This document shows positions 27,911 to 58,477 of a stretch of 64,000 nt of DNA, piece after piece. The DNA is from Candidatus Woesearchaeota archaeon (lineage in GTDB: Archaea > Nanobdellota > Nanobdellia > Pacearchaeales > GW2011-AR1), in contig CAYURQ010000001.1 in the NCBI GenBank assembly GCA_964447315.1, positions 27,351 to 91,350 of the forward strand, in the 5' to 3' direction. The position numbers and the translations under genes were made by a program. Positions within the stretch are counted from its first letter, which is position 1; every line of letters begins with the position of its first letter. The notes below the pieces were generated by a model. It did no database searches and had not been told where the DNA came from. It saw only the letters and a list, made by a program, of their open reading frames with translations.

Positions 27911-29068
27911 ATGGCGCAAGTTAAAATGCAAGCACCATTATTAGAAAATATTTTAGATGTTTCTAACTCATTTTACTTAGATACTTTAGGATATAAACCT
28001 GAGAGAACTTCTTTGCAAGAACTTCCTAAAGAAAGTTGGAGTAATCTTGCTAATGAAAGAGGTCTAAACACAAATTCATCTGGAGTATATTTTCCAAGAA
28101 ACCAATTAGCAGTAATAAAACAAGAGAATCCCTTGAGTTTATTTCATGAGTATTTTGGACATGGATTATATTGCGAACAAAGCTTAGATGGAAGAAAATT
28201 AGTTGAATTAGAAAAAAAGCTTTTAGAAAAAGAAAAAAACAGATTTAATGGATATGAATTTACTTTAAAGGAATTGCAGGAGTTTAGGATAGAAAATCCT
28301 ACATTTCAAGAATTAAATAGATTTAAAGAAGAAAACTTAGGAAAATATGAATTATTTGCCTTATGGACAGAATATTTATTGTCAAAAGAGAATAATATGC
28401 TTGGAGATTTTGAAAGAAGATATGATAATTTTTCAAGGAAAGATAAAGAAGTTATTGATTCTACAATAAACTTTTCAGAAAGTTATGGTAATTTAGCTGC
28501 TTTTTATGCTCAAGGAATGAGCAAAATAATGACCAAAGATAGAGTGACAAAATTAATCAAAGATATTTATAAAAAAGATTTAGATAAGATAAAATTTGCA
28601 TTAGTTTATGGTTCTAAAAAACCTTTTAGTGATATTGATGTATTTATGGTTGGCAAGGGAGCTCCTATTGAATCTCATACAGATTGGTTAGATGCAAAAT
28701 ACAAGAATACTGTAGAATTTCAAAATGGATTAAGAAATTTTGATGTAAGAATAAGTGTTCCTTTAATGAATGGGGAATTTTTATTTGGAGATGAAGAATA
28801 TTTCGAAAAATCAAAACAAAAAATACTCTCTCAACCTATTACTGAAAAATCGATAAAATACAATCTGAGATGGTCTTCTAGAATGCAAAGATTGAAAGAA
28901 GAAAATCAAGAAAATGAATTTTTAAGAAAAAAATTTAAAGGATACAGTCTTACTTATATTAATAATGCATTGGCTTTAAGAAAAGGAAAAAGAATCTTTA
29001 CTAAAGAAGGTTTGCTTTCATATTCGCCTAGCGAAAGTAACACAGAATTAAAAGGAGGAAAAGCATAA
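27911..29068 (+). CDS. nucleotidyltransferase-domain protein (385 aa)
   Basis: Central YGSKKPFSDIDVFMVG matches the polymerase-beta-like nucleotidyltransferase GS...DxD motif. Rest unknown. First gene of a tightly coupled three-gene operon. Confidence 0.4.
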   Translation: MAQVKMQAPLLENILDVSNSFYLDTLGYKPERTSLQELPKESWSNLANERGLNTNSSGVYFPRNQLAVIKQENPLSLFHEYFGHGLYCEQSLDGRKLVELEKKLLEKEKNRFNGYEFTLKELQEFRIENPTFQELNRFKEENLGKYELFALWTEYLLSKENNMLGDFERRYDNFSRKDKEVIDSTINFSESYGNLAAFYAQGMSKIMTKDRVTKLIKDIYKKDLDKIKFALVYGSKKPFSDIDVFMVGKGAPIESHTDWLDAKYKNTVEFQNGLRNFDVRISVPLMNGEFLFGDEEYFEKSKQKILSQPITEKSIKYNLRWSSRMQRLKEENQENEFLRKKFKGYSLTYINNALALRKGKRIFTKEGLLSYSPSESNTELKGGKA

Positions 29069-29368
29069 ATGAAACTTGAACAAATGACTGGAGAAATTTC
29101 ACAAGCATCTCAAGGAAGGAGCAAATACTTCGTGGTTGGAGATTTAAGTTACTTGTCTGGATCTCATTTATATATGGCTGATGAACTATATATAAAGAAT
29201 TTTAGAGATGGAAGTATACTCCACATTCATGAAGTAGATGGTAGAATCACTGGTGCTAATATTAGGGGCACTAATGATTTAAGAGGGACTCCAATTAGCA
29301 ACTATCAAGCAACAATGTTAGATGTCTTGCCTGGAAGCTCTAGAACAATCATAAAAAACGGATCATAA
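29069..29368 (+). CDS. hypothetical protein (99 aa)
   Basis: Its start abuts the previous stop. No motif. Confidence 0.3.
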   Translation: MKLEQMTGEISQASQGRSKYFVVGDLSYLSGSHLYMADELYIKNFRDGSILHIHEVDGRITGANIRGTNDLRGTPISNYQATMLDVLPGSSRTIIKNGS

Positions 29369-29369
29369 A

Positions 29370-29612
29370 ATGGTTTCAGAAAAGCAGATTAAGCACGAGC
29401 TTATAGCCATATATTCTAATTATCTTTCCAGTAAAGAGGATAAAAAGAATAGAGAAAAAGGGTATAAGCTTTATACAAAGTATTTCAATGGTGCAGAAAC
29501 TCTTTTTAGAGAAAATGTGAGTACTGCAATTTGGCAAGCCTTTAATCTGTACGAAGGCAAACTAAAAGAATCCAATGCAAAAAAGATTCTTGAAGATCTT
29601 CGCAAGACTTAA
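29370..29612 (+). CDS. hypothetical protein (80 aa)
   Basis: Tightly coupled to the previous gene. No motif. Confidence 0.3.
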   Translation: MVSEKQIKHELIAIYSNYLSSKEDKKNREKGYKLYTKYFNGAETLFRENVSTAIWQAFNLYEGKLKESNAKKILEDLRKT

Positions 29613-29661
29613 TTTTTATTTTATTTTTTATTTTTAGATAATAAAATTCATATTTAGAAAA

Positions 29662-30147
29662 ATGAAAAAACAAGAAATACTAGAAGAACTTAAAAAACAA
29701 TTTGAATTAACAAAGAAAAAACTTAATTTCAAAGCTAGTTATGATGAAATAAATAACATGTCCTATATTGAGGATATGGCTTTAAGCCAGGGTTTTGTTA
29801 GTAACCAATTCCCAAGGCAGATGATTAACAGAATTGTTGAAACCTTTTATGGATGGGTTGGAGAGATTTATTCCTGGATTTATACCCCGCAAATGGACCT
29901 TATTCATGGGCATGAGGGAAAAAGACTTTCTGAACAAGAAAAAAAAGAATTACTTAATATGATTGATAGAATTATGTATTTAGTTAGAAAAAATAAAAGA
30001 ATTGCTTTTCAAGGTTTAATTGAAAAACAAGAAGGAGAATTTGTTGATGAATTAGTTGAATTTGATAAAAAATACTTTAATCCTTTTATGTTAAAATATC
30101 ATAAAAAATTTGAGAATATCTGGAAACAAGAAATAGATAAAAATTAA
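29662..30147 (+). CDS. hypothetical protein (161 aa)
   Basis: ORF only. Confidence 0.3.
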   Translation: MKKQEILEELKKQFELTKKKLNFKASYDEINNMSYIEDMALSQGFVSNQFPRQMINRIVETFYGWVGEIYSWIYTPQMDLIHGHEGKRLSEQEKKELLNMIDRIMYLVRKNKRIAFQGLIEKQEGEFVDELVEFDKKYFNPFMLKYHKKFENIWKQEIDKN

Positions 30148-30158
30148 ATATTTTTCAA

Positions 30159-30467
30159 TTAATAAGGTATCTTTTCACCTTCCCTAGAGCAATGCGTGCA
30201 ATTGCCTTCAAGACCACATTCTCCTCCAGAAAGCCTTAATCCTTGTCCAGGAGCATTATAATTTCCTTGATAATATCTACATCTTGGTTCAATAAGAAAT
30301 TCTTGCCATCCTCCTGAAGATCCAAGAGTGCTACGTCTAGATACTTTCATTCCCCCTCGAACTTCAACATCTTTTTCTTTAGAAGTGCAAGTGAATGGAT
30401 GATCATACTTTTCTCTTAAATTTTCCATTACTTCTTTAAGAACTGAATTTGAATATTCATAACTCAT
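30159..30467 (-). CDS. Cys/Gly-rich small protein, 'YDHPF' family, paralog 2 (103 aa from internal Met)
   Basis: The ORF-track ORF 30159..30590 overlaps paralog 1. Met42 (MSYEYSNS...KYDHPF) gives a protein co-linear with the upstream paralog. Conserved KYDHPFxC, FxIEPxCxYYxGxY and C-terminal CxxC. Confidence 0.45.
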   Translation of the reverse strand: MSYEYSNSVLKEVMENLREKYDHPFTCTSKEKDVEVRGGMKVSRRSTLGSSGGWQEFLIEPRCRYYQGNYNAPGQGLRLSGGECGLEGNCTHCSREGEKIPY

Positions 30468-30474
30468 TTTTAAA

Positions 30475-30783
30475 TTATACATTTCCTCCATCTGTTTCAC
30501 AGGCTCTGCAAACACTTTTTCCTGGTTTTCCACAAATTCCAGTGTCTCCTCCTGTATATCCTCCCCTATAATAACTACATTTTGGTTCAATAAAGAATTT
30601 TTGATATCCGCTATTACTAGGAGCTGATCCAGGATACCACCTAACAGTCATCCCTCTAACCCGCACCCCTATCTCCTGCGCTTTTTTACTCCCTCCCTTT
30701 GCAAGAATATTTAGATACCCACAAATAAACGGATGATCATATTTTTTTTCCAGATCCTTTTTTATTTCATTAACATCTGACAT
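30475..30783 (-). CDS. Cys/Gly-rich small protein, 'YDHPF' family, paralog 1 (102 aa)
   Basis: Paralogous to 30159..30467, with conserved motifs in the same order. Arranged in tandem on the same strand. Confidence 0.45.
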   Translation of the reverse strand: MSDVNEIKKDLEKKYDHPFICGYLNILAKGGSKKAQEIGVRVRGMTVRWYPGSAPSNSGYQKFFIEPKCSYYRGGYTGGDTGICGKPGKSVCRACETDGGNV

Positions 30784-30939
30784 TAAAAAATAATGCTCTT
30801 AATATTTAAATAAATTATTGTACTGAAAAATACTCTTCCTCTAAAACAGTAAACTAAGTAAAACAGATAATACTTCTGTAAAAGACGAAAGATTTAAATA
30901 GTAATATCAATTGATATTATCATAAAAATAGGAGTTAAA

Positions 30940-31218
30940 ATGCCATTATTACAAAAAAGAAATCCAAATGCAAGGTCACCAACATTACAAACAGTATTGA
31001 TGGTTGAAAAATTCATTGAAGAAAATAGTGGAGAGTATAAAAAAACAGAATTGTTCAAAAAACTTCCTAGAAAAGTAATGTGGCAAACATTTCAAATAAT
31101 AGTGCAATATCTTGAAGAAAATTATAAAATAATTATTGGAAAGGATGGAATAGTAACCTACATATGGAATCCAAATTTCTATGAAAAAATTAAAGATAGG
31201 CCAGAGATAAAAATATGA
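30940..31218 (+). CDS. small conserved protein (92 aa), paralog of 59574..59861
   Basis: Shares SPTLxTVxMVE..IxENSGExKKT...KLPxKxMW...YLxE..KII...DG..TYIWNP with the 95-aa protein at 59574. Its stop overlaps the next start by 4 nt. Confidence 0.45.
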   Translation: MPLLQKRNPNARSPTLQTVLMVEKFIEENSGEYKKTELFKKLPRKVMWQTFQIIVQYLEENYKIIIGKDGIVTYIWNPNFYEKIKDRPEIKI

Positions 31219-31535
31219 AATCAAAGGTTGTTTTTGTTGATAATAGCCTAGAAAAAGCGTTTAATTCTCTTGATGAATCAGACCCTATTAAAAAAGCATT
31301 AATTAGGGCAATAAAAAATATTCAACAAGATCCAAAAGCTGGAAGGAGTGTTATAAAAAGAATGATTCCAGAGAGACTAATTAAGAAATATGGGATAAAT
31401 AACTTGATGATTTACAATTTGCCAAATGCATGGAGAATGTTATATTCAGTAACTACTTCTGGAGATATAGAATTGGTGGCTGTAATACTTGATTGGATGA
31501 ATCACAAGGACTATGAGAGATTATTCAAGTTTTAA
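31215..31535 (+). CDS. RelE/ParE (or YoeB)-like toxin candidate (106 aa)
   Basis: C-terminal WRMLYSVTTSGDIELVAVILDWMNHKDYERLF follows the RelE/YoeB pattern ([WY]R..Y.V....V.V..I..H..Y). Translationally coupled to the upstream small gene. Confidence 0.4.
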   Translation: MKSKVVFVDNSLEKAFNSLDESDPIKKALIRAIKNIQQDPKAGRSVIKRMIPERLIKKYGINNLMIYNLPNAWRMLYSVTTSGDIELVAVILDWMNHKDYERLFKF

Positions 31536-31832
31536 TTATTCTTCATCTTCCTCAAGAACTAGTAAACTAAGTAAAACAATTAATACTCCTGCTATTATAG
31601 AAATTACCCAGCTTAGCCAACCTAACTCTAGAGTCTTAAACTTAATTATTAAAAAACCTGCAATACCAAGCAATCCTATGAATATATAATCTTTTCGTAT
31701 TTTTTCTTTGATAATTGGGGCGTGTTCTGAAAATACATCAAGAATTCCAGTAACAATTACAACAACCAATAATATATTTAAGTTAAGATAAGTGCTAACA
31801 AGTCCTGCCCATATTTGTTCAATCAATAACAA
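31536..31832 (-). CDS. small 3-TM membrane protein, family A (98 aa)
   Basis: Three hydrophobic helices and an acidic C-terminus (LEEDEE). About 90% identical to 33542..33844 and to its copies in repeat 2. The last ~9 codons lie outside the repeat. Confidence 0.5.
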   Translation of the reverse strand: MLLIEQIWAGLVSTYLNLNILLVVVIVTGILDVFSEHAPIIKEKIRKDYIFIGLLGIAGFLIIKFKTLELGWLSWVISIIAGVLIVLLSLLVLEEDEE

Positions 31833-31937
31833 TATTAGATAAGTTACTAAGACTGTTTGAAAGATGTGATTTACTAGGGATGCGTTGTGTCTGTGGAAAA
31901 GGGAAAAGTTTATAGAATTTTAAATTATTATTAAAAC

Positions 31938-32324
31938 ATGGAAGAAAGAGATGTAATAATTAAGATTTATGATAAAAAAGAAGAAATTAATAAAATAATT
32001 AAAGAATTAAAAAAATATTCATTTGAAGATTACATTAAAACTGGCCATTATGAAATTTCTTTATTAACTAAAGGAACAGATGAAGATAAATTGAGAGAGA
32101 TTTATCCTAAATTTGATATTATAGAATTAATAGCATTGAGGAGGCATAAAAATGGTTATGAGAATTATGATGTTTATTATGAACTTGAAAAAGGAAATTA
32201 TGCTTTGTTTGCCATAAATCTAGAAGGTAAAAAACCTAAAATAGATAATGCATTTATAGCTAATAGAATATTCAAAAATTTCTTAAAATCTATGGTAAAA
32301 AGATATGGTAATAAAATGGTTTAA
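31938..32324 (+). CDS. hypothetical protein B (128 aa)
   Basis: Divergent from family-A gene, with a TATA-like TTTATAG about 30 nt upstream. No motif. Its stop overlaps the convergent DUF2283-like gene by 4 nt. Confidence 0.4.
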   Translation: MEERDVIIKIYDKKEEINKIIKELKKYSFEDYIKTGHYEISLLTKGTDEDKLREIYPKFDIIELIALRRHKNGYENYDVYYELEKGNYALFAINLEGKKPKIDNAFIANRIFKNFLKSMVKRYGNKMV

Positions 32325-32656
32325 TTAGTCATGCATTGCATAGGTATATTTGCTATAGGAATTTGTTTTATTCCTGCTTTTTCATCTTCTAATCCCACCC
32401 CAATAAATAATTGATCTCTGCTTGGTTTTACAATAAGATTTAATTTTTCAAAGTCTTTTATTTGTTGTATATTAAACCCTATTGCCTCAAGAAAATTAGA
32501 AAACTCTCTTACTTCTAAACTAACTACTTTTCCGTTTCCAGTAGTGCTAATAATAAAATCTCCAAAGCTAAAATTCTTCTTAACTTTCTCATTATCTTGA
32601 ATAGAAGCCACAATTAAGCTGTCTGTATTCTCATCATATTTAGAGACTTTTATCAT
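32321..32656 (-). CDS. DUF2283-like small protein (111 aa)
   Basis: N-terminal MIKVSKYDENTDSLIV...GKVVSLEV matches the DUF2283 pattern (M.i.YD.e.D.lyi...G.ivGiEi). Confidence 0.4.
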   Translation of the reverse strand: MIKVSKYDENTDSLIVASIQDNEKVKKNFSFGDFIISTTGNGKVVSLEVREFSNFLEAIGFNIQQIKDFEKLNLIVKPSRDQLFIGVGLEDEKAGIKQIPIANIPMQCMTN

Positions 32657-32756
32657 ATTTTATAATAATATTTTGTTTATTTATACCTTTCTATTCATCT
32701 TCTAGAGGCAAGTAAAACATATAAATCTTAATAAATAATTAAAACTCCTTTTCTTA

Positions 32757-33545
32757 ATGGGAATTGATTCATCTGAAGCAAATCAAATAATAAACGCTAT
32801 TGATTTTGTAAATCATCATTATGGAGGTTCTGCAAAAGTTACTGGAGAATTCTTTTGTAAAGACTGTAATGAGAAATTTCCTTCTGGAGAATTTCGTTAT
32901 GATAAAGGAGGGTATATTCCAGGGCCAGGTTTAATTAATTTGTCTTCTGAAAGGGCTGCATTTCCCCTTCATGAGTTTCATACTGTTCTTGCTTTAAAAG
33001 ATTCTGATGAGATCTATGAAAAAAGAGTGATTTTAGACTTATTTAATAAATCAAGAAACTGGAATTTTTATGATGTTCCAGAAAGATGCTTTGAGGATTA
33101 TATGAAAATAATGAAAACAAGCTCACTAATTTCTATTGCTAGTCTAGAAGCTAATCATTGGTGTTATTCACTTCATTCAACACCAGATTTTACAGAAGAA
33201 GAAATGCTGGAGGATCCTATTAAAAGGGATATTCTAGAAATGGATAGGAAGATTAATCTTAGGCCAAATAAATTAGAAAATGAGGTTAAACCAGAAATAA
33301 ATCGGGTTTTCAAAGACATAATTGGTAATAGAGAAATTCCAATAATTTATATTATTCCAGAAGAATTTAGAGGAGATTTTGGAGAGGAATATTATAAAAG
33401 GGATTTTATTGAAGCAACATACAATACTTTTAAAGCAAAGAACATACTTTTTCCAGATGAAAAAAGAAATTCTGTTATTAAAATAATTGATTCTTACTTT
33501 AAAGAAGCAGAATTAAAGCATGAAAGACACCCTTCTCCTTTTTAG
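32757..33545 (+). CDS. hypothetical protein D (262 aa)
   Basis: ORF. N-terminal CKDCNEKF and later Cys/His residues. No recognised domain. Confidence 0.4.
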   Translation: MGIDSSEANQIINAIDFVNHHYGGSAKVTGEFFCKDCNEKFPSGEFRYDKGGYIPGPGLINLSSERAAFPLHEFHTVLALKDSDEIYEKRVILDLFNKSRNWNFYDVPERCFEDYMKIMKTSSLISIASLEANHWCYSLHSTPDFTEEEMLEDPIKRDILEMDRKINLRPNKLENEVKPEINRVFKDIIGNREIPIIYIIPEEFRGDFGEEYYKRDFIEATYNTFKAKNILFPDEKRNSVIKIIDSYFKEAELKHERHPSPF

Positions 33546-33844
33546 GATTCTTCATCCTCTTCTAAAACAAGTAAACTAAGTAAAACAATTAATACTCCTG
33601 CAACAAGAGATATTACCCATGACAACCATCCTAATTCTAGTGTTTTAAACTTGATTATCAGGAAACCTGCAATACCAAGCAATCCTATAAATATGTAATC
33701 TTTAGGTTTTATTTTTTCTTTAATAATTGGAGCGTGTTCTGAAAATACATCAAGAATTCCAGTAACAATTACAACAACTAATAAGATATTTAAGTTAAGA
33801 TAAGTGCTAACAAGTCCTGCCCATATTTGCTCAATTAATAACAA
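33542..33844 (-). CDS. small 3-TM membrane protein, family A' (100 aa)
   Basis: Paralog of 31536..31832 within the same repeat copy. Upstream region also similar. Confidence 0.5.
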   Translation of the reverse strand: MLLIEQIWAGLVSTYLNLNILLVVVIVTGILDVFSEHAPIIKEKIKPKDYIFIGLLGIAGFLIIKFKTLELGWLSWVISLVAGVLIVLLSLLVLEEDEES

Positions 33845-33960
33845 TATTAGATAAGTTACTAAGACTGTTTGAAAGGTGTGATTTACTAGGGATGTGTTGT
33901 GTCCACGGAATAGGAGGTGTTGGAGTGAGGGTTTGGGAATGTTGATAGGATTATTTTAAT

Positions 33961-34602
33961 TTATATAGAAGAATTAATATCTCCATGCACTACTAATGAT
34001 TGATAATTTTCAAATAAGAAAGGGGCATAAAATTGGGCTTCTGGAAAATCTTTAGTTGTACTTAGATACCAAATATTCTCTTCCATTTTATCTTTAGCTC
34101 TTTCAACTGACTTTTCTATAGTAGAACCTTCTATTAATGCTTTAACAAGGATATTTGAGGGTTCTAAAAATAATTTTGCTATTTTATCTCTTCTTGGAGA
34201 TGCCTCCTGATTAGGATCTTTCCCAAGATTAAAATCTCTCTCATATCCAATAAAACAAATGGCTCCTTTAGTAACTATTATCTTCCCTAGTTTTTGTCCT
34301 GATGAACAAGTTAGGGAATAAACAACCATGCCTGAAAGAACTTTTGCATTTTCTTTAGAGATTATTATCTCATTTTTATGCCCAGCAATCAAATCAGGAT
34401 TACCATGCCCATTAAACATAATAAAATCTGGTTTTTGCTTTTTTATAATTTTTAAGATTTCTTTTTTATTTGCTTTTTCTCTTTCCCTATTTATTGTTTT
34501 GTTTCCTCTTTCTTTCGAATATTTAACTAATTCTTTACTATAATAATATAAATAAGAGAGGGTCCCATCATGCTCGGGTCTGGAAAAAATAATATTACTC
34601 AT
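33961..34602 (-). CDS. putative minimal caspase/hemoglobinase-fold protease-like protein (His/Cys dyad)
   Basis: 213 aa. FIMFNGHGNPDLIAGH (His followed by Gly, like the caspase SHG motif), then about 33 residues later YSLTCSSGQ (Cys followed by small residues, like QACRG / DACHSG). An N-terminal beta-strand IIFSRPEHDG. Last gene of the operon G-F-E. Confidence 0.3.
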   Translation of the reverse strand: MSNIIFSRPEHDGTLSYLYYYSKELVKYSKERGNKTINREREKANKKEILKIIKKQKPDFIMFNGHGNPDLIAGHKNEIIISKENAKVLSGMVVYSLTCSSGQKLGKIIVTKGAICFIGYERDFNLGKDPNQEASPRRDKIAKLFLEPSNILVKALIEGSTIEKSVERAKDKMEENIWYLSTTKDFPEAQFYAPFLFENYQSLVVHGDINSSI

Positions 34603-34604
34603 AA

Positions 34605-34841
34605 TTATTGTTTTACTAAAAAACCTCTTTTGAAAGCTTTAAGATAGTTTAATTGGATTTCAACTATTCTATTTCCAATATCTGTATTATCTTCTATGTT
34701 TTTTATCAACTCATCTCTTTTCATAAATTTTCCATCAGACATTCCAAATGAAACACTTACATTTGGGGAAGCCTGCCTAATTCTTTCTATGACTATTTCT
34801 TTCTTTAACTGATCTATATTCTCTTGTTTATTTTCTTTCAT
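34605..34841 (-). CDS. hypothetical protein F (78 aa)
   Basis: Middle gene of the operon. Overlaps the upstream gene by 4 nt (ATGA). Confidence 0.35.
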   Translation of the reverse strand: MKENKQENIDQLKKEIVIERIRQASPNVSVSFGMSDGKFMKRDELIKNIEDNTDIGNRIVEIQLNYLKAFKRGFLVKQ

Positions 34842-35020
34842 ATTATTTCTAACTCTTTTAGTATTTTTAATATTTTCTCTCCATTTTCTGTCTTATTCTT
34901 TATTTCTTGGTAAGCAAGATTCCAACTTATTGGATTTTTATCTATAATTACTATTGTATTGTTTCTTTCTTTTATAGGCACTCCAGAATAAACTTTAAAG
35001 AAATCTTCTTCATTTACCAT
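34838..35020 (-). CDS. hypothetical protein G (60 aa)
   Basis: First gene of the G-F-E operon. Confidence 0.3.
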   Translation of the reverse strand: MVNEEDFFKVYSGVPIKERNNTIVIIDKNPISWNLAYQEIKNKTENGEKILKILKELEII

Positions 35021-35203
35021 TATTAAATTAGTAAATTAATCTTTTTAATTTTTGTCATTTCTTTTTCCTCGGCTTATTCCAATAAGGACTTTGGGGTTTC
35101 ATGAAACACTGAAGAGAAAAGGATATTTAAATGCTGTTTTTTGGAGTGTGGGTAAAACAATTCATCTTAATCTATATATTTTTTAATTAATGATTCTATA
35201 ATT

Positions 35204-35464
35204 TTAATTATACACTTTATCTCTTTTATCAATTTTTACTATCAAAATTATTTTCTGAGCTTCTTTAATTTTATATAATGCTCTAAAGTACCCAATTCTA
35301 TACCTAAAAACCATCTCATTATTATCTCTCCCAATAAACTTTGAATCACTTGGTACAGGAGTATTTTCAAGGTTTTTTAATCTCTTTTCAATCCTTTCTC
35401 TTTCTTTGGTATCTAATTTGTTTAAAAAATCCTGGGCTTTAACAGACAGCTCTACAGAATACAT
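35204..35464 (-). CDS. RelE/ParE-family toxin (86 aa)
   Basis: MVFRYRIGYFRALYKI...IILIVKIDKRDKVY is the classic RelE/ParE C-terminal signature. Confidence 0.6.
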   Translation of the reverse strand: MYSVELSVKAQDFLNKLDTKERERIEKRLKNLENTPVPSDSKFIGRDNNEMVFRYRIGYFRALYKIKEAQKIILIVKIDKRDKVYN

Positions 35465-35465
35465 T

Positions 35466-35627
35466 TTACAGTCTCTTTGTTCTGCCTTCTTTTAAATCTT
35501 CTTCAGCTTGATTTAAAGAGTTTATGTCGTCTTGGGTTAGAGTTACATCTATTATGTGCTCCTTTAAAGAATCCATATCTTTTTTTAAATTGTCTAGTTT
35601 ACTTATGATTAATTCTTCGTTTTCCAT
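35466..35627 (-). CDS. putative antitoxin (53 aa), not in ORF track
   Basis: My reverse-complement translation gives MENEELIISKLDNLKKDMDSLKEHIIDVTLTQDDINSLNQAEEDLKEGRTKRL. Its stop lies 2 nt before the RelE ATG, the typical antitoxin-toxin arrangement. Confidence 0.45.
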   Translation of the reverse strand: MENEELIISKLDNLKKDMDSLKEHIIDVTLTQDDINSLNQAEEDLKEGRTKRL

Positions 35628-35781
35628 ATCTTCCAATATAAAAATAACTATATAATCTTTTCGTATTTTTTATTTTTCATAAGGGGTGTTGGTTGGAGCA
35701 TTTTAGGGAGTATTGTAAATTAAAAAAAAAGAAATAATTAGCAGAACAATCAAAAAAAATTAGAAAAGATATGGAAAGAAT

Positions 35782-36189
35782 CTACAAAATTTCTTTTAAA
35801 TAATTAGATAAATTTAAATCCCTAATTTCTTGTTTTCTTAACCATTTATAATCTTCATGTTCTTTACTTAACTTAACATTCTCTGGTTTTTCATGAGTTT
35901 TTAATATATATATTATTCTTAAAAGATGAACTTTTTTCCCTTGTTTCTCATATTCTTTACTTAATATTCTATAGATTGAAACTATTTCTGTATCGAGACT
36001 TGTTTCTTCCTTAACTTCTCTAAGTACAGCTTCAGAAGGATCTTCTCCAAATTCAACTCTTCCTCCAGGAATTTCCCATTCTCGAGAACCATCTACTTCT
36101 TTTGAATTTCTTTTAAGAAAAAGAAACTTATCTTGTATCTGAATCAATCCATTTGCTAAAATATTTGTTTTTTTCTTAATTTCTGACAT
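35782..36189 (-). CDS. NUDIX hydrolase
   Basis: 135 aa. Nudix box GGRVEFGEDPSEAVLREVKEETSL (Gx5Ex7REVxEExG). Sits in the unique 544-bp spacer between the two repeat copies. Confidence 0.8.
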   Translation of the reverse strand: MSEIKKKTNILANGLIQIQDKFLFLKRNSKEVDGSREWEIPGGRVEFGEDPSEAVLREVKEETSLDTEIVSIYRILSKEYEKQGKKVHLLRIIYILKTHEKPENVKLSKEHEDYKWLRKQEIRDLNLSNYLKEIL

Positions 36190-36224: not shown

Positions 36225-36527
36225 CTAATCTTGTTGTTCACCTTCTTCTAAAACAAGCAAACTAAGTAAAACAATTAATACTCCTGCTATTATAGAAATT
36301 ACCCAGCTTAGCCAACCTAACTCTAGAGTCTTAAACTTAATTATTAAAAAACCTGCAATACCAAGCAATCCTATGAATATATAATCTTTTCGTATTTTTT
36401 CTTTGATAATTGGGGCGTGTTCTGAAAATACATCAAGAATTCCAGTAACAATTACAACAACCAATAATATATTTAAGTTAAGATAAGTGCTAACAAGTCC
36501 TGCCCATATTTGTTCAATCAATAACAA
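36225..36527 (-). CDS. small 3-TM membrane protein, family A (copy 2; C-terminus differs outside the repeat)
   Basis: Identical to 31536..31832 except for the last residues (EEGEQQD). Confidence 0.5.
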   Translation of the reverse strand: MLLIEQIWAGLVSTYLNLNILLVVVIVTGILDVFSEHAPIIKEKIRKDYIFIGLLGIAGFLIIKFKTLELGWLSWVISIIAGVLIVLLSLLVLEEGEQQD

Positions 36528-36632
36528 TATTAGATAAGTTACTAAGACTGTTTGAAAGATGTGATTTACTAGGGATGCGTTGTGTCTGTGGAAAAGGGAA
36601 AAGTTTATAGAATTTTAAATTATTATTAAAAC

Positions 36633-37019
36633 ATGGAAGAAAGAGATGTAATAATTAAGATTTATGATAAAAAAGAAGAAATTAATAAAATAATTAAAGA
36701 ATTAAAAAAATATTCATTTGAAGATTACATTAAAACTGGCCATTATGAAATTTCTTTATTAACTAAAGGAACAGATGAAGATAAATTGAGAGAGATTTAT
36801 CCTAAATTTGATATTATAGAATTAATAGCATTGAGGAGGCATAAAAATGGTTATGAGAATTATGATGTTTATTATGAACTTGAAAAAGGAAATTATGCTT
36901 TGTTTGCCATAAATCTAGAAGGTAAAAAACCTAAAATAGATAATGCATTTATAGCTAATAGAATATTCAAAAATTTCTTAAAATCTATGGTAAAAAGATA
37001 TGGTAATAAAATGGTTTAA
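36633..37019 (+). CDS. hypothetical protein B (copy 2)
   Basis: Identical to 31938..32324. Confidence 0.4.
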   Translation: MEERDVIIKIYDKKEEINKIIKELKKYSFEDYIKTGHYEISLLTKGTDEDKLREIYPKFDIIELIALRRHKNGYENYDVYYELEKGNYALFAINLEGKKPKIDNAFIANRIFKNFLKSMVKRYGNKMV

Positions 37020-37351
37020 TTAGTCATGCATTGCATAGGTATATTTGCTATAGGAATTTGTTTTATTCCTGCTTTTTCATCTTCTAATCCCACCCCAATA
37101 AATAATTGATCTCTGCTTGGTTTTACAATAAGATTTAATTTTTCAAAGTCTTTTATTTGTTGTATATTAAACCCTATTGCCTCAAGAAAATTAGAAAACT
37201 CTCTTACTTCTAAACTAACTACTTTTCCGTTTCCAGTAGTGCTAATAATAAAATCTCCAAAGCTAAAATTCTTCTTAACTTTCTCATTATCTTGAATAGA
37301 AGCCACAATTAAGCTGTCTGTATTCTCATCATATTTAGAGACTTTTATCAT
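37016..37351 (-). CDS. DUF2283-like protein (copy 2)
   Basis: Identical to 32321..32656. Confidence 0.4.
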   Translation of the reverse strand: MIKVSKYDENTDSLIVASIQDNEKVKKNFSFGDFIISTTGNGKVVSLEVREFSNFLEAIGFNIQQIKDFEKLNLIVKPSRDQLFIGVGLEDEKAGIKQIPIANIPMQCMTN

Positions 37352-37451
37352 ATTTTATAATAATATTTTGTTTATTTATACCTTTCTATTCATCTTCTAG
37401 AGGCAAGTAAAACATATAAATCTTAATAAATAATTAAAACTCCTTTTCTTA

Positions 37452-38240
37452 ATGGGAATTGATTCATCTGAAGCAAATCAAATAATAAACGCTATTGATT
37501 TTGTAAATCATCATTATGGAGGTTCTGCAAAAGTTACTGGAGAATTCTTTTGTAAAGACTGTAATGAGAAATTTCCTTCTGGAGAATTTCGTTATGATAA
37601 AGGAGGGTATATTCCAGGGCCAGGTTTAATTAATTTGTCTTCTGAAAGGGCTGCATTTCCCCTTCATGAGTTTCATACTGTTCTTGCTTTAAAAGATTCT
37701 GATGAGATCTATGAAAAAAGAGTGATTTTAGACTTATTTAATAAATCAAGAAACTGGAATTTTTATGATGTTCCAGAAAGATGCTTTGAGGATTATATGA
37801 AAATAATGAAAACAAGCTCACTAATTTCTATTGCTAGTCTAGAAGCTAATCATTGGTGTTATTCACTTCATTCAACACCAGATTTTACAGAAGAAGAAAT
37901 GCTGGAGGATCCTATTAAAAGGGATATTCTAGAAATGGATAGGAAGATTAATCTTAGGCCAAATAAATTAGAAAATGAGGTTAAACCAGAAATAAATCGG
38001 GTTTTCAAAGACATAATTGGTAATAGAGAAATTCCAATAATTTATATTATTCCAGAAGAATTTAGAGGAGATTTTGGAGAGGAATATTATAAAAGGGATT
38101 TTATTGAAGCAACATACAATACTTTTAAAGCAAAGAACATACTTTTTCCAGATGAAAAAAGAAATTCTGTTATTAAAATAATTGATTCTTACTTTAAAGA
38201 AGCAGAATTAAAGCATGAAAGACACCCTTCTCCTTTTTAG
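37452..38240 (+). CDS. hypothetical protein D (copy 2)
   Basis: Identical to 32757..33545. Confidence 0.4.
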   Translation: MGIDSSEANQIINAIDFVNHHYGGSAKVTGEFFCKDCNEKFPSGEFRYDKGGYIPGPGLINLSSERAAFPLHEFHTVLALKDSDEIYEKRVILDLFNKSRNWNFYDVPERCFEDYMKIMKTSSLISIASLEANHWCYSLHSTPDFTEEEMLEDPIKRDILEMDRKINLRPNKLENEVKPEINRVFKDIIGNREIPIIYIIPEEFRGDFGEEYYKRDFIEATYNTFKAKNILFPDEKRNSVIKIIDSYFKEAELKHERHPSPF

Positions 38241-38539
38241 GATTCTTCATCCTCTTCTAAAACAAGTAAACTAAGTAAAACAATTAATACTCCTGCAACA
38301 AGAGATATTACCCATGACAACCATCCTAATTCTAGTGTTTTAAACTTGATTATCAGGAAACCTGCAATACCAAGCAATCCTATAAATATGTAATCTTTAG
38401 GTTTTATTTTTTCTTTAATAATTGGAGCGTGTTCTGAAAATACATCAAGAATTCCAGTAACAATTACAACAACTAATAAGATATTTAAGTTAAGATAAGT
38501 GCTAACAAGTCCTGCCCATATTTGCTCAATTAATAACAA
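38237..38539 (-). CDS. small 3-TM membrane protein A' (copy 2)
   Basis: Identical to 33542..33844. Confidence 0.5.
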   Translation of the reverse strand: MLLIEQIWAGLVSTYLNLNILLVVVIVTGILDVFSEHAPIIKEKIKPKDYIFIGLLGIAGFLIIKFKTLELGWLSWVISLVAGVLIVLLSLLVLEEDEES

Positions 38540-38655
38540 TATTAGATAAGTTACTAAGACTGTTTGAAAGGTGTGATTTACTAGGGATGTGTTGTGTCCA
38601 CGGAATAGGAGGTGTTGGAGTGAGGGTTTGGGAATGTTGATAGGATTATTTTAAT

Positions 38656-39297
38656 TTATATAGAAGAATTAATATCTCCATGCACTACTAATGATTGATA
38701 ATTTTCAAATAAGAAAGGGGCATAAAATTGGGCTTCTGGAAAATCTTTAGTTGTACTTAGATACCAAATATTCTCTTCCATTTTATCTTTAGCTCTTTCA
38801 ACTGACTTTTCTATAGTAGAACCTTCTATTAATGCTTTAACAAGGATATTTGAGGGTTCTAAAAATAATTTTGCTATTTTATCTCTTCTTGGAGATGCCT
38901 CCTGATTAGGATCTTTCCCAAGATTAAAATCTCTCTCATATCCAATAAAACAAATGGCTCCTTTAGTAACTATTATCTTCCCTAGTTTTTGTCCTGATGA
39001 ACAAGTTAGGGAATAAACAACCATGCCTGAAAGAACTTTTGCATTTTCTTTAGAGATTATTATCTCATTTTTATGCCCAGCAATCAAATCAGGATTACCA
39101 TGCCCATTAAACATAATAAAATCTGGTTTTTGCTTTTTTATAATTTTTAAGATTTCTTTTTTATTTGCTTTTTCTCTTTCCCTATTTATTGTTTTGTTTC
39201 CTCTTTCTTTCGAATATTTAACTAATTCTTTACTATAATAATATAAATAAGAGAGGGTCCCATCATGCTCGGGTCTGGAAAAAATAATATTACTCAT
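38656..39297 (-). CDS. putative caspase-fold His/Cys protein (copy 2)
   Basis: Identical to 33961..34602. Confidence 0.3.
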   Translation of the reverse strand: MSNIIFSRPEHDGTLSYLYYYSKELVKYSKERGNKTINREREKANKKEILKIIKKQKPDFIMFNGHGNPDLIAGHKNEIIISKENAKVLSGMVVYSLTCSSGQKLGKIIVTKGAICFIGYERDFNLGKDPNQEASPRRDKIAKLFLEPSNILVKALIEGSTIEKSVERAKDKMEENIWYLSTTKDFPEAQFYAPFLFENYQSLVVHGDINSSI

Positions 39298-39299
39298 AA

Positions 39300-39536
39300 T
39301 TATTGTTTTACTAAAAAACCTCTTTTGAAAGCTTTAAGATAGTTTAATTGGATTTCAACTATTCTATTTCCAATATCTGTATTATCTTCTATGTTTTTTA
39401 TCAACTCATCTCTTTTCATAAATTTTCCATCAGACATTCCAAATGAAACACTTACATTTGGGGAAGCCTGCCTAATTCTTTCTATGACTATTTCTTTCTT
39501 TAACTGATCTATATTCTCTTGTTTATTTTCTTTCAT
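39300..39536 (-). CDS. hypothetical protein F (copy 2)
   Basis: Identical to 34605..34841. Confidence 0.35.
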   Translation of the reverse strand: MKENKQENIDQLKKEIVIERIRQASPNVSVSFGMSDGKFMKRDELIKNIEDNTDIGNRIVEIQLNYLKAFKRGFLVKQ

Positions 39537-39715
39537 ATTATTTCTAACTCTTTTAGTATTTTTAATATTTTCTCTCCATTTTCTGTCTTATTCTTTATTT
39601 CTTGGTAAGCAAGATTCCAACTTATTGGATTTTTATCTATAATTACTATTGTATTGTTTCTTTCTTTTATAGGCACTCCAGAATAAACTTTAAAGAAATC
39701 TTCTTCATTTACCAT
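39533..39715 (-). CDS. hypothetical protein G (copy 2)
   Basis: Identical to 34838..35020. Confidence 0.3.
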   Translation of the reverse strand: MVNEEDFFKVYSGVPIKERNNTIVIIDKNPISWNLAYQEIKNKTENGEKILKILKELEII

Positions 39716-39898
39716 TATTAAATTAGTAAATTAATCTTTTTAATTTTTGTCATTTCTTTTTCCTCGGCTTATTCCAATAAGGACTTTGGGGTTTCATGAA
39801 ACACTGAAGAGAAAAGGATATTTAAATGCTGTTTTTTGGAGTGTGGGTAAAACAATTCATCTTAATCTATATATTTTTTAATTAATGATTCTATAATT

Positions 39899-40159
39899 TT
39901 AATTATACACTTTATCTCTTTTATCAATTTTTACTATCAAAATTATTTTCTGAGCTTCTTTAATTTTATATAATGCTCTAAAGTACCCAATTCTATACCT
40001 AAAAACCATCTCATTATTATCTCTCCCAATAAACTTTGAATCACTTGGTACAGGAGTATTTTCAAGGTTTTTTAATCTCTTTTCAATCCTTTCTCTTTCT
40101 TTGGTATCTAATTTGTTTAAAAAATCCTGGGCTTTAACAGACAGCTCTACAGAATACAT
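39899..40159 (-). CDS. RelE/ParE-family toxin (copy 2)
   Basis: Identical to 35204..35464. Confidence 0.6.
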   Translation of the reverse strand: MYSVELSVKAQDFLNKLDTKERERIEKRLKNLENTPVPSDSKFIGRDNNEMVFRYRIGYFRALYKIKEAQKIILIVKIDKRDKVYN

Positions 40160-40160
40160 T

Positions 40161-40322
40161 TTACAGTCTCTTTGTTCTGCCTTCTTTTAAATCTTCTTCA
40201 GCTTGATTTAAAGAGTTTATGTCGTCTTGGGTTAGAGTTACATCTATTATGTGCTCCTTTAAAGAATCCATATCTTTTTTTAAATTGTCTAGTTTACTTA
40301 TGATTAATTCTTCGTTTTCCAT
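40161..40322 (-). CDS. putative antitoxin (copy 2)
   Basis: Identical to 35466..35627. Confidence 0.45.
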   Translation of the reverse strand: MENEELIISKLDNLKKDMDSLKEHIIDVTLTQDDINSLNQAEEDLKEGRTKRL

Positions 40323-40591
40323 ATCTTCCAATATAAAAATAACTATATAATCTTTTCGTATTTTTTATTTTTCATAAGGGGTGTTGGTTGGAGCATTTTA
40401 GGGAGTATTGGGGGAGGAAGGGAAAAGTAGATAAATATTCATTAAACAATAATATCACAATGAGAAAAAGTTTATATATCCCGCATTGTTTGATAAATTA
40501 TGAGAGTAAAATGGGGGGTGAATGTATTTTCTGAAAGATAGTTTTATAAATATAATTAAATCTCTCTTTTATAAAGATTTTAAGTAAAAAA

Positions 40592-40846
40592 ATGGAACAG
40601 CAATTTATGACAAATAATTCAGATAATTTGCAAGAACTCTTTGATTCTAAAAAAAATGAAGTTGTTTCTCTTTGTAAGGAAGTTGCTGAAAATGAATTTG
40701 ACTTATTTGAATTTAATCTTTTCTTAGCTTCTATGGGGAAGAAAAAATTAGATGAATCTACTAAGAAAGTAAGAGAACTTAGAAAGAAAGTAGATAAAGG
40801 AAAGATTGATTTAACAAAAGACGAAGATATGTTGGATGATTATTAA
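40592..40846 (+). CDS. hypothetical acidic protein (84 aa)
   Basis: ORF. Convergent 4-nt overlap with the next gene. Confidence 0.3.
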   Translation: MEQQFMTNNSDNLQELFDSKKNEVVSLCKEVAENEFDLFEFNLFLASMGKKKLDESTKKVRELRKKVDKGKIDLTKDEDMLDDY

Positions 40847-41429
40847 TGCCTTTTCTTTTTATTAGAATGTTTATTTTTTGAAAAATTTCTTAACATCTTA
40901 TTTACCTCTTGTTCTGATCCAGGTTCTATAATTGTTGGTACATCCAAATCAATATTTAAATAATTACAAGGATCTTGAAAATCTCTTCTATTATTTGTTG
41001 AGATGCAATTTATTCCAGCAATACAATATACAGATATTATTCTTAAATCATTATCCCCTGCCTTCCAATTATTGTCTTTTCTTTCTGTTTTTAGTTTGTC
41101 AAAAAGTGCATTTACCTTGGCTTGATTTACATCTTTCTTTTTTATGGGTTTTATCCTATTTCTTCTTAAAAAATTAAAGATTTCTCTTTTATTTAATTCT
41201 TTATCTGGATTCTTTTTAGATAACAGATTTAATAATTCACTAAAAACAATATAATTTGTATGAAGAAAATTGCCTCTTTTTGCAATTCTAGGCCTATATC
41301 CCCAAGTTCCTTTTTCATTTTCCATCCAAGAAAAAGAGTTATCTGTATCTAAACCAATTTTTCTTAAAATTTTATTTCTTGCTACAACTCTTTCCATATG
41401 AATAACCTTCTTTTTCTTATTATCCATTA
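40843..41429 (-). CDS. hypothetical protein (195 aa from internal Met MDNKKKK)
   Basis: The ORF-track N-terminal extension would translate through the G-rich intergenic element. The trimmed start has TATA-like CTATATATTTTTAAA about 25 nt upstream. Confidence 0.35.
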
Positions 41430-41575
41430 TTTGTTTAATCAAACTAAATTTAAAAATATATAGCAAGATTAAAGAATTTTTTATTTTCCATAGGGGGTGT
41501 TGGTTGGAGCATTTGGGGGAGTGTTTGGAGGGAGAGAGGGAAAAGTAGATAAATGTTAAAACAATCTCTTTTTTT

Positions 41576-42445
41576 ATGGAGATTGCATCAGTTATAGAAA
41601 TAGGAAGCAAGTTTTTATCCTATGTTCTTGGGTTTTCAAGCATAGAATCAAATGAGATGGTGTTATACAGAATTCTTGCAGTATTTATTCTTGGTTGGTT
41701 GTGCTTATTTGGTTTTTTAATCATAAGAAAATCAAAATCCTTAAAACATTGGAGAATTCCCCATTTAGTTAGTATTAGTGCCATAATCTTAGTAAGTTCA
41801 GTTGGATTTTTTATTAGTTATATTCTCATATTAAATTTTAATATGTTAATTATTATAACAGAAAATATAAATGAACCAATAAACTTTCTAACAGTACTCT
41901 TTTTTATGATTTTTTACATTTCATTTGGTCTTGATTCAATAAATAAAAAATTAGGGAATGGGGAAAACTCTGAAGAATTAATTCCAAAAGAGGTGGGAAT
42001 CTTTGTCTGGAGATCAATTATGCTTGGATTTGGATTGCTAGTTGTTGTATTGTCCCAATTATTTCTATTAAAATATCTAGGGAGACTTCCTTTTGACTTA
42101 AATGTTTCTCCATCTCCTCCTTGGTTTTATTTAGCTGCGTTTCTTTTCTTTTTTTTAGCTGGAATTCTCCTTTGTTATTTTTCACTTGCAAGAAAAAAAT
42201 CTACTGAATTTTTTAATAAAATGGACAAATTTATGGAAAATAATCTTAGAGTGCCATTCATTTTTATGTTTGTTATTTTCATAATAATATTAATAGATAA
42301 AATAATAAGAAAAGATTCTGATAATTTAATACGTTCAGCTTTTATAAGCGCAGTTTTCTTAGTTATTTCTATTTTTATTAAAAAAATAAATAAGTGGGTA
42401 GTAGATTTTTTGAAAAATCTGGGTACTTTGGAAAAGAAAAAGTAA
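41576..42445 (+). CDS. polytopic membrane protein (289 aa)
   Basis: Six or more hydrophobic helices. Divergent from the previous gene, across the G-rich element. Confidence 0.4.
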   Translation: MEIASVIEIGSKFLSYVLGFSSIESNEMVLYRILAVFILGWLCLFGFLIIRKSKSLKHWRIPHLVSISAIILVSSVGFFISYILILNFNMLIIITENINEPINFLTVLFFMIFYISFGLDSINKKLGNGENSEELIPKEVGIFVWRSIMLGFGLLVVVLSQLFLLKYLGRLPFDLNVSPSPPWFYLAAFLFFFLAGILLCYFSLARKKSTEFFNKMDKFMENNLRVPFIFMFVIFIIILIDKIIRKDSDNLIRSAFISAVFLVISIFIKKINKWVVDFLKNLGTLEKKK

Positions 42446-50764: not shown

Positions 50765-51805
50765 TCACACCATATTTATTACAGATTTAATTGTTTCCTT
50801 TATGCTTTTAAAAAACCCAAGAGATATTCCTTTTTTATAAATTTCTTTGTCAGAAAATATTCTTTTTGATTGTATTTTCTTTCTTTCTATCTTATTCTTC
50901 TTAAGATCTCTAAAAAAAGAAAAGTTTGCCTTACATATTGAAAAAGCATTAGAAAATTTTCCTTTAAAGCAAAATAAAACTATTGATCCAAAACTATATA
51001 TTAGAGAATAGAAAAATATATTTGAGAACACAGAAATTTTTTTCTGAGGATATTTAAAAAGATTAGACAATCTGTTTTTCCATAAGTTAAATAAATAAAA
51101 ATCTGAACGTTCGCTTTTTTTTGAAGATCCCCTTACTTTATGCCAATAAATAGAAGATGGAATTGAAATTATATTATATCCTTTAGTCCAAGCATTCCAT
51201 CCTAAAGACATATCTTCACCATACATAAAGTAATTCTCATCAAAACCTTTTAACTTTAGAAAGATAGTTTTTTTTATGAACATTCCTGCTCCTGAAGGGT
51301 GGAATGTAAATTTTATTTCTTTATCCATCTTATAAATTTTTTTTCCAGAATCTTCTGAAATAAAAGATCCAAATGAAGTTTTTTTTAGATTATTCACTAA
51401 AACTTTATCTTTATTATAATAATCTAACATCAAAGAGGATCCGATAAATAATTTTTTTTCTAGCAAAACATTTATTGCCCCAGAAACCCAATCTTTATCT
51501 ACGGAAGTATCTGAATTAAGAAATGCTAAATATTCTCCTTTAGCAAATCTTGCTCCCTTATTATTTCCTCTTGCAAAACCATAATTTTTCTTAAGTTCCA
51601 ATATTTTTATCCAAGGATATTTATTTTTTGTGTATTCAACAGAATTATCTTGAGAATTATTATCAACCATGATAACTTCATAATTGGATTTTGGATAATT
51701 TATTTTCTTTAGAGAATCAAAACATTCTTTGATATGTTGTTTTCCATTATAATTAAGAACAATTATGCTTACTTTAGGGTAATTTATTTTACTTTTTCTT
51801 TTCAT
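50765..51805 (-). CDS. family 2 glycosyltransferase
   Basis: VSIIVLNYNGKQHIKECFDSL...VIMVDNNSQDNS is the GT2 (GT-A) N-terminal signature. Confidence 0.75.
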   Translation of the reverse strand: MKRKSKINYPKVSIIVLNYNGKQHIKECFDSLKKINYPKSNYEVIMVDNNSQDNSVEYTKNKYPWIKILELKKNYGFARGNNKGARFAKGEYLAFLNSDTSVDKDWVSGAINVLLEKKLFIGSSLMLDYYNKDKVLVNNLKKTSFGSFISEDSGKKIYKMDKEIKFTFHPSGAGMFIKKTIFLKLKGFDENYFMYGEDMSLGWNAWTKGYNIISIPSSIYWHKVRGSSKKSERSDFYLFNLWKNRLSNLFKYPQKKISVFSNIFFYSLIYSFGSIVLFCFKGKFSNAFSICKANFSFFRDLKKNKIERKKIQSKRIFSDKEIYKKGISLGFFKSIKETIKSVINMV

Positions 51806-58318: not shown

Positions 58319-58477
58319 GTGGTTGGAATATTTTAAGAGAATTAGAGGTTGTTGGAGTTAATTGTGGGTTGGAATATGTTGATAGGATGTTTTGGGATTG
58401 TTGGGGGTGTTTTATGTGGATTTATTTTACCCCTACAAAATAGGAAGATTTATAAATATGTGGGGGTAAATATATTT

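Follow-up and report, generated by a model that had tools for sequence, protein, structure and literature searches.

Two adjacent genes on the minus strand of a 64,000-nucleotide stretch of DNA (hereafter the window, meaning this whole stretch at its full length) are best read as tandem duplicates, specific to their lineage, of an orphan gene that is rare and evolves fast. We observed that the family to which they belong is rare, uncharacterised, undescribed in every library searched and so far found only in DPANN (Pacearchaeota/Nanoarchaeota-type) archaea. Judging from their sequences, the two genes encode orphan cytoplasmic proteins that carry a set of four invariant cysteines, are predicted to be of the alpha+beta type and probably bind a metal.

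Organisation and paralogy of the gene pair

A preliminary description of this locus had given the coordinates and the strand of the pair, and both agreed with the ORF listing. The features used below are the following:

30475..30783, minus strand: upstream paralog P0001, 102 aa, ATG start (ORF listing)
30159..30467, minus strand: downstream paralog, 102 aa from ATG 30467 (ORF listing and homologue alignment)
30468..30590, minus strand: spurious 5′ extension of the downstream ORF; the homologue N-termini support none of its starts
30803..30810, minus strand: TATA-box-like TTTAAATA, 20-27 nt upstream of the upstream-gene ATG (30783)
30257..30311, minus strand: DNA segment encoding W-Q-E-F-L-I-E-P-R-C-R-Y-Y-Q-G-N-Y in the downstream copy (repeat comparison)

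The downstream ORF as listed (30159..30590, minus strand) is 143 aa long from a TTG and overlaps the upstream gene by 116 nt in a different frame. Its 5′ extension offers alternative starts at TTG 30590, GTG 30533, ATG 30491 and ATG 30482; the public call, P0002, is 124 aa from GTG 30533 and is also too long. In an alignment of eight sequences, all six homologues from other organisms start within a few residues of Met42 of the 143-aa ORF. As the homologue N-termini begin there, we placed the downstream start at the corresponding ATG 30467, which sits 7 nt past the stop of the upstream gene. The earlier proposal that this ORF is over-extended and has to be trimmed to the co-linear Met was thus correct, and the resulting correction of the public gene call is of practical value.

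A single bicistronic, near-leaderless mRNA, started from one TATA promoter, probably covers both genes. This reading is consistent with the TATA-like element preceding the upstream gene only, in a window where such motifs have a density of ~1.2 per kb per strand. No TATA-like element was found within 60 nt of the downstream start, which is located within the upstream coding region or directly behind it. At its 3′ end the pair stops 11 nt from the stop of a convergent 161-aa gene, and a six-frame HMM search of the whole window detected no third copy.

Next, we compared the two proteins. BLASTP aligned them with 32% identity over 107 columns (E 7e-16), which bore out their description as tandem, same-strand, divergent paralogs; MAFFT gave 40% identity over 88 ungapped columns, 35 of the columns being identical. 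The latter include KYDHPF-x-C, V-x-V-R-G, I-E-P-x-C-x-Y-Y-x-G-x-Y, C-G and C-x-x-C, and the motifs KYDHPF[IT]C, F[FL]IEP[KR]C[SR]YY[RQ]G[GN]Y and C[RT][AH]C occur in both paralogs. At the DNA level, the segment at 30257..30311 is 76% identical over 55 nt to 30555-30609 of the upstream copy, and the segment around IEPxCxYY is the most conserved core of the duplication.

Each paralog has five cysteines, where six or more had been counted earlier. All five align, and the common cysteine framework that had been described is indeed present in both. Cys makes up 4.9% of the residues in the pair against 0.8% in the window's long ORFs, a six-fold enrichment; the corresponding values are 13-16% against 5.8% for Gly and 6.9% against 3.7% for Tyr. 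The N-termini of both proteins are hydrophilic (GRAVY −0.6 and −0.9), and neither has a transmembrane segment. Upstream of the first ATG of P0001 there are five in-frame codons and then a stop, so no N-terminal extension is possible there. These properties are consistent with the earlier statement that a signal peptide is lacking. Hydropathy likewise indicated hydrophilic N-termini, with no N-terminal export signal or leader, in 8/8 members of the family described below.

The downstream paralog carries the conserved residues F25, C27, V36, E60-P61, C63, Y66, G68, C84, C90 and C93, and those of P0001 are F19, C21, V42, G44, E66-P67, C69, Y72, G74, C84, C92 and C95. P0001 differs by a 12-aa insert (GYLNILAKGGSK) after the first Cys and by a 6-aa deletion before the third Cys. 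As every invariant residue is kept despite this insertion and deletion, the upstream copy appears to be a functional, sub- or neo-functionalised duplicate. With the family HMM, the upstream paralog scored 95 bits and the downstream one 150 bits, the latter being the member nearest to the family consensus.

Family members, genomic context and history of the duplication

An exhaustive HMMER scan of 1.84 billion 50%-identity representative proteins with the two-sequence profile (E < 1e-3) returned seven proteins, namely the two from the window and P0003-P0007. A word-index search with the seven-sequence profile added one more, P0008, so that the family comprises eight clusters in total, with members of 101-124 aa as called, all of them stand-alone. 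When the upstream protein was used as the query of a word index covering 5.8 billion clusters, it matched itself only. We found no relatives in the GTDB species representatives (scanned twice), in IMG/VR viral contigs or, by tblastn, in GenBank phages and PLSDB plasmids; JGI metagenome contigs, also scanned twice, yielded one already-known contig only. None of the eight members matched anything below E 0.07 in Pfam, NCBIfam, PHROGs, PADLOC or the PDB sequences. The best Pfam E-value was ~0.1, each weak Pfam family being matched by a single member, and the family profile gave one match among the PDB sequences (IRC4, E 0.074). The family had been put forward as unfamiliar, and none of these curated resources holds a relative; a ribosomal or zinc-ribbon housekeeping family, which would have spoken against this view, was not among the matches in the curated libraries.

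The window is a segment of an archaeal chromosome with 27% G+C that carries RpoB, RpoA′/RpoA″, aEF-2, EF-1alpha, S7, SMC and RNase HII. The organism is taken to be a DPANN archaeon because of its unsplit RpoB and RpoA and its aEF-2, and because public sources name a neighbouring gene family Candidatus Pacearchaeota / Nanoarchaeota. RNA polymerase subunit A is encoded here by one ORF of 1163 aa (3983-7474, plus strand), which matches the A′ model with residues 4-820 and the A″ model with residues 808-1132; subunit B is unsplit (721-3981, plus strand; 1086 aa). A′ and A″ are separate genes in most archaea, and the fusion may be a sequencing or frame artefact or a lineage trait.

Five independent contexts were read for members from other organisms:

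P0004 (L004-L006): flanked by an RtcB-like gene (assigned by eye from a GAGNHF...HCGSRGLGH motif) and a convergent 160-aa gene
P0003 (L002): between a basic 169-aa gene and a convergent operon (peptidase S66, radical-SAM/SPASM, aaRS-like, methyltransferase)
P0005 (L008 and a 58-kb JGI contig): transcribed away from topoisomerase I; Nre, Rpo11 and a RadA-like ATPase in the same block
P0007 (L012): arranged like P0005, with topoisomerase I divergent and with Nre, Rpo11 and a RadA-like ATPase in the block
P0006 (L018): same strand as an LMW-phosphatase/ArsC-type gene and 50 nt downstream of it

The gene is single-copy in all five, with no room for a second copy, which answers in the negative the question, raised earlier, of whether homologues always occur as tandem pairs. 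In two lineages its neighbours, topoisomerase I, Rpo11, a RadA-like ATPase and Nre, belong to the core genome, and no conserved neighbour of the family gives a functional hint. The operon facing P0003 (L002 7649-13185, minus strand) encodes two class-II aaRS-like proteins (tRNA-synt_2), a methyltransferase, a radical-SAM/SPASM protein and a peptidase S66 (MccF-like), and it could be a cluster for a peptide or aminoacyl natural product in an archaeon of DPANN type. Two other unusual proteins of low complexity are encoded nearby in relatives, both unrelated to the family of the pair. One is a Cys-rich protein of 176 aa (L004 4441-4971, minus strand; …GGNCPLCGECTG…). The other is a low-complexity protein of 299 aa (L022 6973-7872, minus strand) with a GYGYSYGYDNSYGYGYGY repeat, a C-terminal Cys-rich stretch and hydrophobic segments near both ends, the N-terminal one possibly being a signal sequence.

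The contig L004 is syntenic with the window. Its 379-aa gene is 43% identical to the window gene at 27911-29068 (385 aa), and its 160-aa gene is 70% identical to that at 29662-30147 (161 aa). P0004, from the same contig, is 40% identical to the downstream paralog (E 5e-20) and 31% identical to the upstream one. Because of this synteny and the better match, we consider the downstream copy as the positional orthologue of P0004 and the upstream copy as the extra one. In a neighbour-joining tree, the clade consisting of the upstream and downstream paralogs, P0003 and P0004 had 100% bootstrap support, with the upstream copy as its most divergent member and its longest and most basal branch. The branching order within this clade was poorly supported (24-50%), and the duplication may therefore be recent with subsequent acceleration, or somewhat older.

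The proteins diverge faster than their surroundings. The topoisomerases I beside P0005 and P0007 are 70% identical, whereas the Cys proteins there are 31% identical; between the window and L004, the neighbouring gene is 70% and the Cys protein 40% identical. It follows from these figures that about a dozen residues are rigidly kept while the rest of the protein diverges fast.

The gene convergent to the pair belongs to a four-gene operon that is conserved in Pacearchaeota-type archaea (window 27911-30147, plus strand; L004 1351-4308; L022 4167-6498). It starts with a gene for a 385-aa protein having an HExxH-like motif (FHEYFGHG) and, at the C-terminus, a minimal nucleotidyltransferase motif (GSKKPFSDIDVF; Pfam Polbeta E 0.008). 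The genes that follow encode, in order, one or two small 'MKLEQ...' proteins, a protein of 80-114 aa and a very conserved 161-aa protein; the family of the last comprises at least 57 clusters with 58-79% identity and lacks a Pfam domain. A functional coupling of the Cys genes to this convergent operon (385-99-80-161 aa in the window) was considered and rejected: the 161-aa family has the at least 57 clusters just mentioned, in L022 an unrelated 138-aa gene lies opposite the operon, and in L020 the 161-aa homologue occurs by itself.

The pair had been placed at the left edge of an accessory island. A variable region does adjoin the pair; however, the downstream copy is syntenic with the backbone of a relative (L004), and the variable region thus begins just beyond the pair and not with it. 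Just upstream of the pair (30843-30881) lies a 39-nt remnant of the 3′ region of the membrane-protein genes described below. It is followed by a two-gene module (30940-31535, plus strand), divergent from the Cys-rich genes and having an overlapping stop/start at 31215-31218, that encodes a 92-aa protein and then a 106-aa protein with a weak match to ParE/RelE toxins (Pfam E 0.019). From its sequence this module is probably a type II toxin-antitoxin pair.

Beyond this module, 31536-35715 and 36231-40410 are direct copies of a 4180-bp segment that are 99.8% identical (8 mismatches, no gaps) and separated by 515 bp holding a NUDIX gene (35782-36189). Each copy contains two diverged genes for membrane proteins of 98-100 aa (~89% DNA identity over ~357 bp) as well as unannotated genes of 128, 111, 262 and 213 aa. 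This arrangement in the variable region looks like either a segmental duplication of recent date or a repeat created in assembly. A G-rich intergenic motif of ~80 nt (…GGGGTGTTGGTTGGAGCATTT…GGGAAAAGTAGATAAAT) is present at 40360-40439, at 41476-41557 and also at 35665-35717, being repeated two to three times around a PIN-domain gene (40843-41610). A promoter/leader or a small RNA is a possible reading of this motif; Rfam gave no match in the window. Further along, an AAA_14/DUF4143 ATPase (56640-57914) and a Fic/DOC-domain protein (58349-59428) are encoded near a glycosyltransferase/epimerase cluster (50765-54070), and the AAA_14/DUF4143 type of gene is also found near the conserved four-gene operon in L022.

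The cysteine framework and its possible function

In the eight-sequence alignment, the invariant residues are M1, L17, F25, C27, V36, E60, P61, C63, Y66, G68, C84 and C90 (downstream numbering), and G38 is nearly invariant; His23 of KYDHPF is not conserved across the family. Four of the five cysteines are therefore invariant in 8/8 members, with the spacing C-x36-47-C-x14-20-C-x5-7-C, so the loss of the framework in homologues, named beforehand as an argument against its significance, was not seen. The fifth (C93) is the second Cys of the only CxxC knuckle of the family, which is degenerate in 3/8 members: it is Cys in five (CPYC, CPHC, CTHC, CTKC, CRAC) and Thr or Ser in three (CPYT, CGYS, CPHS). 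The eight sequences gave no co-variation signal.

AlphaFold2 reached a pLDDT of 39 with two sequences and of 58.7 (pTM 0.50), still a weak model, with eight. In the latter, a helix (residues 3-21) precedes seven strands, and confidence is lowest, with pLDDT below 50, in the Cys/Gly-rich stretch 64-86, as expected if an organising cofactor were missing from the model. A Foldseek search of this weak model against the PDB and BFVD found no fold match (best E 0.18, TM ~0.2-0.3). A cystatin-like fold was rejected, since stefin/cystatin chains appeared only at E ≥1.8 and TM ~0.2, where TM > 0.5 was required; in the light of the model, this scatter would reflect only the helix-plus-meander topology.

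The reading that we prefer, in line with the earlier suggestion of a metal-binding miniprotein, though with a confidence a little short of an even chance, is that the four invariant cysteines bind one metal centre, which would organise the Gly/Tyr-rich loops. Three considerations argue for it: the cytoplasmic location speaks against disulfides, the four cysteines are strictly invariant in a fast-evolving protein, and the Cys/Gly region is the least confident part of a model computed without metal. If there is such a centre, structural Zn(Cys)4 is most likely and an Fe-S cluster less likely. Caution is called for because the Cys spacing matches no known zinc-finger, zinc-ribbon or Fe-S signature, because the only CxxC knuckle is degenerate in 3/8 members, and because Cys motifs alone predict zinc binding unreliably: zinc is not always bound even by archaeal proteins with canonical C(P)XCG motifs (PMC11241148).

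According to this proposal, each paralog would be a cytoplasmic protein of ~11 kDa in which an N-terminal helix leads into a beta-meander and then into a Gly/Tyr-rich C-terminal loop region. The invariant cysteines would come from distant parts of the chain, one from just after the helix, one from E-P-x-C and two from GGxC-x5-7-C, and would converge on one metal centre. This centre may brace the otherwise low-complexity loops onto the sheet, and the braced loops may create a variable binding surface for a putative partner. The downstream copy would retain the ancestral position and the consensus-like sequence, and the upstream copy is possibly its partner in a hetero-oligomer.

The main rival, a different use of the cysteines, has a minor but real share of our confidence. 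The C-terminal CxxC may be the catalytic dithiol/monothiol motif of a novel oxidoreductase or thiol relay of non-thioredoxin fold, the other cysteines being structural or resolving. Variation from CxxC to CxxS/T is the classic pattern of thiol-disulfide oxidoreductases, CPYC is the glutaredoxin motif and CPHC that of DsbA. The family agrees with this in that the first Cys of CxxC is invariant and the second is Cys in five members and Ser/Thr in three, and the L018 homologue lies 50 nt downstream of an LMW phosphatase/ArsC-type gene on the same strand. However, CPxC is equally typical of zinc knuckles, and the ArsC-type neighbour was seen once only. No member matched a thioredoxin-, glutaredoxin- or DsbA-type Pfam profile at E-values up to 10. 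In the low-confidence model, the motif is predicted between loops and the terminal strand and not at the N-terminus of the helix after beta1; Pfam, the predicted topology and Foldseek, the last two depending on that model, all failed to show a thioredoxin fold in which CxxC would open helix 1.

Other explanations fare much worse. One is that the genes form a toxin/immunity or bacteriocin-like module, or a pair of secreted disulfide-knot effectors; a disulfide-knot miniprotein pair, possibly of the toxin/immunity or bacteriocin-like kind, had been suggested at the outset. The genes are adjacent, co-oriented and beside a variable region with the RelE/ParE-like module at 30940-31535, and a rigid Cys framework combined with fast evolution (31-40% identity, against 70% for the neighbours) is as in toxin-like miniproteins. 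Against this, the two components share a common ancestry, which is not typical of a toxin and the partner that confers immunity to it; two non-homologous components conserved as a pair were not observed, and the relatives, in 5/5 contexts, carry a single gene, which two lineages keep next to topoisomerase I in a core neighbourhood. The proteins are without signal peptide or transmembrane segment, and searches of PADLOC, PHROGs, phages, plasmids and IMG/VR gave no match. We consequently regard this explanation as very unlikely, the disulfide knot being unlikely for a leaderless cytoplasmic protein.

We give just as little credence to the idea that the proteins are RiPP precursors, with a radical-SAM/SPASM maturase cross-linking the Cys-rich C-terminal half. 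P0003 (L002) is convergent to the operon with radical-SAM/SPASM, peptidase S66, methyltransferase and two class-II aaRS-like genes, and the P0005 contig has two radical-SAM genes within 3.5 kb. A maturase is, however, not conserved with the gene, being adjacent in 1/5 homologue contexts and nearby in a second. Radical-SAM genes are absent from L004, L012 and L018 and, by Pfam, from the 42 window ORFs scanned, which include all those near the pair. The proteins, moreover, have a predicted folded, beta-rich body of ~100 aa that is conserved over its whole length, and not a leader plus core.

Least credible of all is a degenerate PCNA-derived subdomain acting in DNA replication or repair: residues 6-79 of P0001 align with the C-terminal 58 residues of yeast PCNA (E 0.24-1.1), with the P0001-specific insert opposite a PCNA helix and FFIEPK opposite FFLAPK, and some homologues neighbour topoisomerase I, a RadA-like gene and Nre, but the E-value is not significant, all three matches are to one and the same protein from yeast, none of the other members matches PCNA, and the family profile matches neither PDB nor Pfam PCNA models. 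A PCNA-like identity was rejected at the family level by hhalign, which gave a probability of 0.2% for the family against a PCNA alignment of manually entered sequences.

Should the Cys4 centre be real, a new small fold for metal binding or redox chemistry would be defined, and the large part of DPANN archaeal genomes that lacks annotation would gain one annotated family. A bolder version is that the family represents a new DPANN-confined metal/redox-cofactor fold, combining a centre of four distant cysteines with a variable CxxC/CxxS thiol on a fast-evolving scaffold. We consider it improbable; if true, it would be a new small redox or Fe-S protein, or a diversifying symbiont-host binding module, and the tandem copies would form a heteromer. 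As the family is rare (eight clusters) and without a conserved genomic partner, it is unlikely to bear on a major open question. On the practical side, it is flagged here as a compact, easily expressed target for structural genomics.

Comparison with known systems

Among the closest known systems are the small archaeal C(P)XCG zinc-finger proteins, such as Haloferax volcanii HVO_0758 and related mu-proteins and Halobacterium Brz (PMC10716476, PMC6562870, PMC11241148, PMC2253796). A stand-alone small Cys4 protein is a familiar kind of object (PMC6562870, PMC10716476). Like the present family, the C(P)XCG proteins are small, cytoplasmic and stand-alone, have four cysteines as their main conserved feature, and are often lineage-restricted and of unknown partner; several members of our family also have one CPxC-type knuckle. 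The two groups differ in that the C(P)XCG proteins are under 70 aa and contain two C(P)XCG knuckles, whereas the present proteins are of ~100 aa with a predicted body of helix and beta-sheet. Their four invariant cysteines are spread over 60-70 residues, and in place of two CxxC(G) knuckles there is a single CxxC, which is not conserved, its second Cys being Ser/Thr in 3/8. We found no sequence or profile similarity between the family and the C(P)XCG proteins, nor any match to the zinc-ribbon Pfam models, the best being Zn_ribbon_IFT122_C at E 2.9 for one member.

The family shares its tetrapeptides with Grx (CPYC), DsbA (CPHC) and the monothiol CGFS/CPYS proteins, and it resembles the thiol-disulfide oxidoreductases in having an invariant first Cys with the second replaced by Ser/Thr in some members. 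Unlike in those enzymes, the motif is close to the C-terminus (9-12 residues away), where a loop and a strand are predicted, and the three further invariant cysteines have no counterpart there.

Archaeal genomes, those of DPANN above all, normally contain small hypothetical proteins restricted to a lineage (PMC6393860, PMC9258230). The present family resembles the 'dark matter' families of DPANN (PMC6393860, PMC9258230) in being small, unannotated, narrowly distributed and known almost only from metagenome assemblies. It is, however, much rarer than is typical of them, with eight clusters against at least 57 for the neighbouring 161-aa family, and its invariant Cys framework sets it apart.
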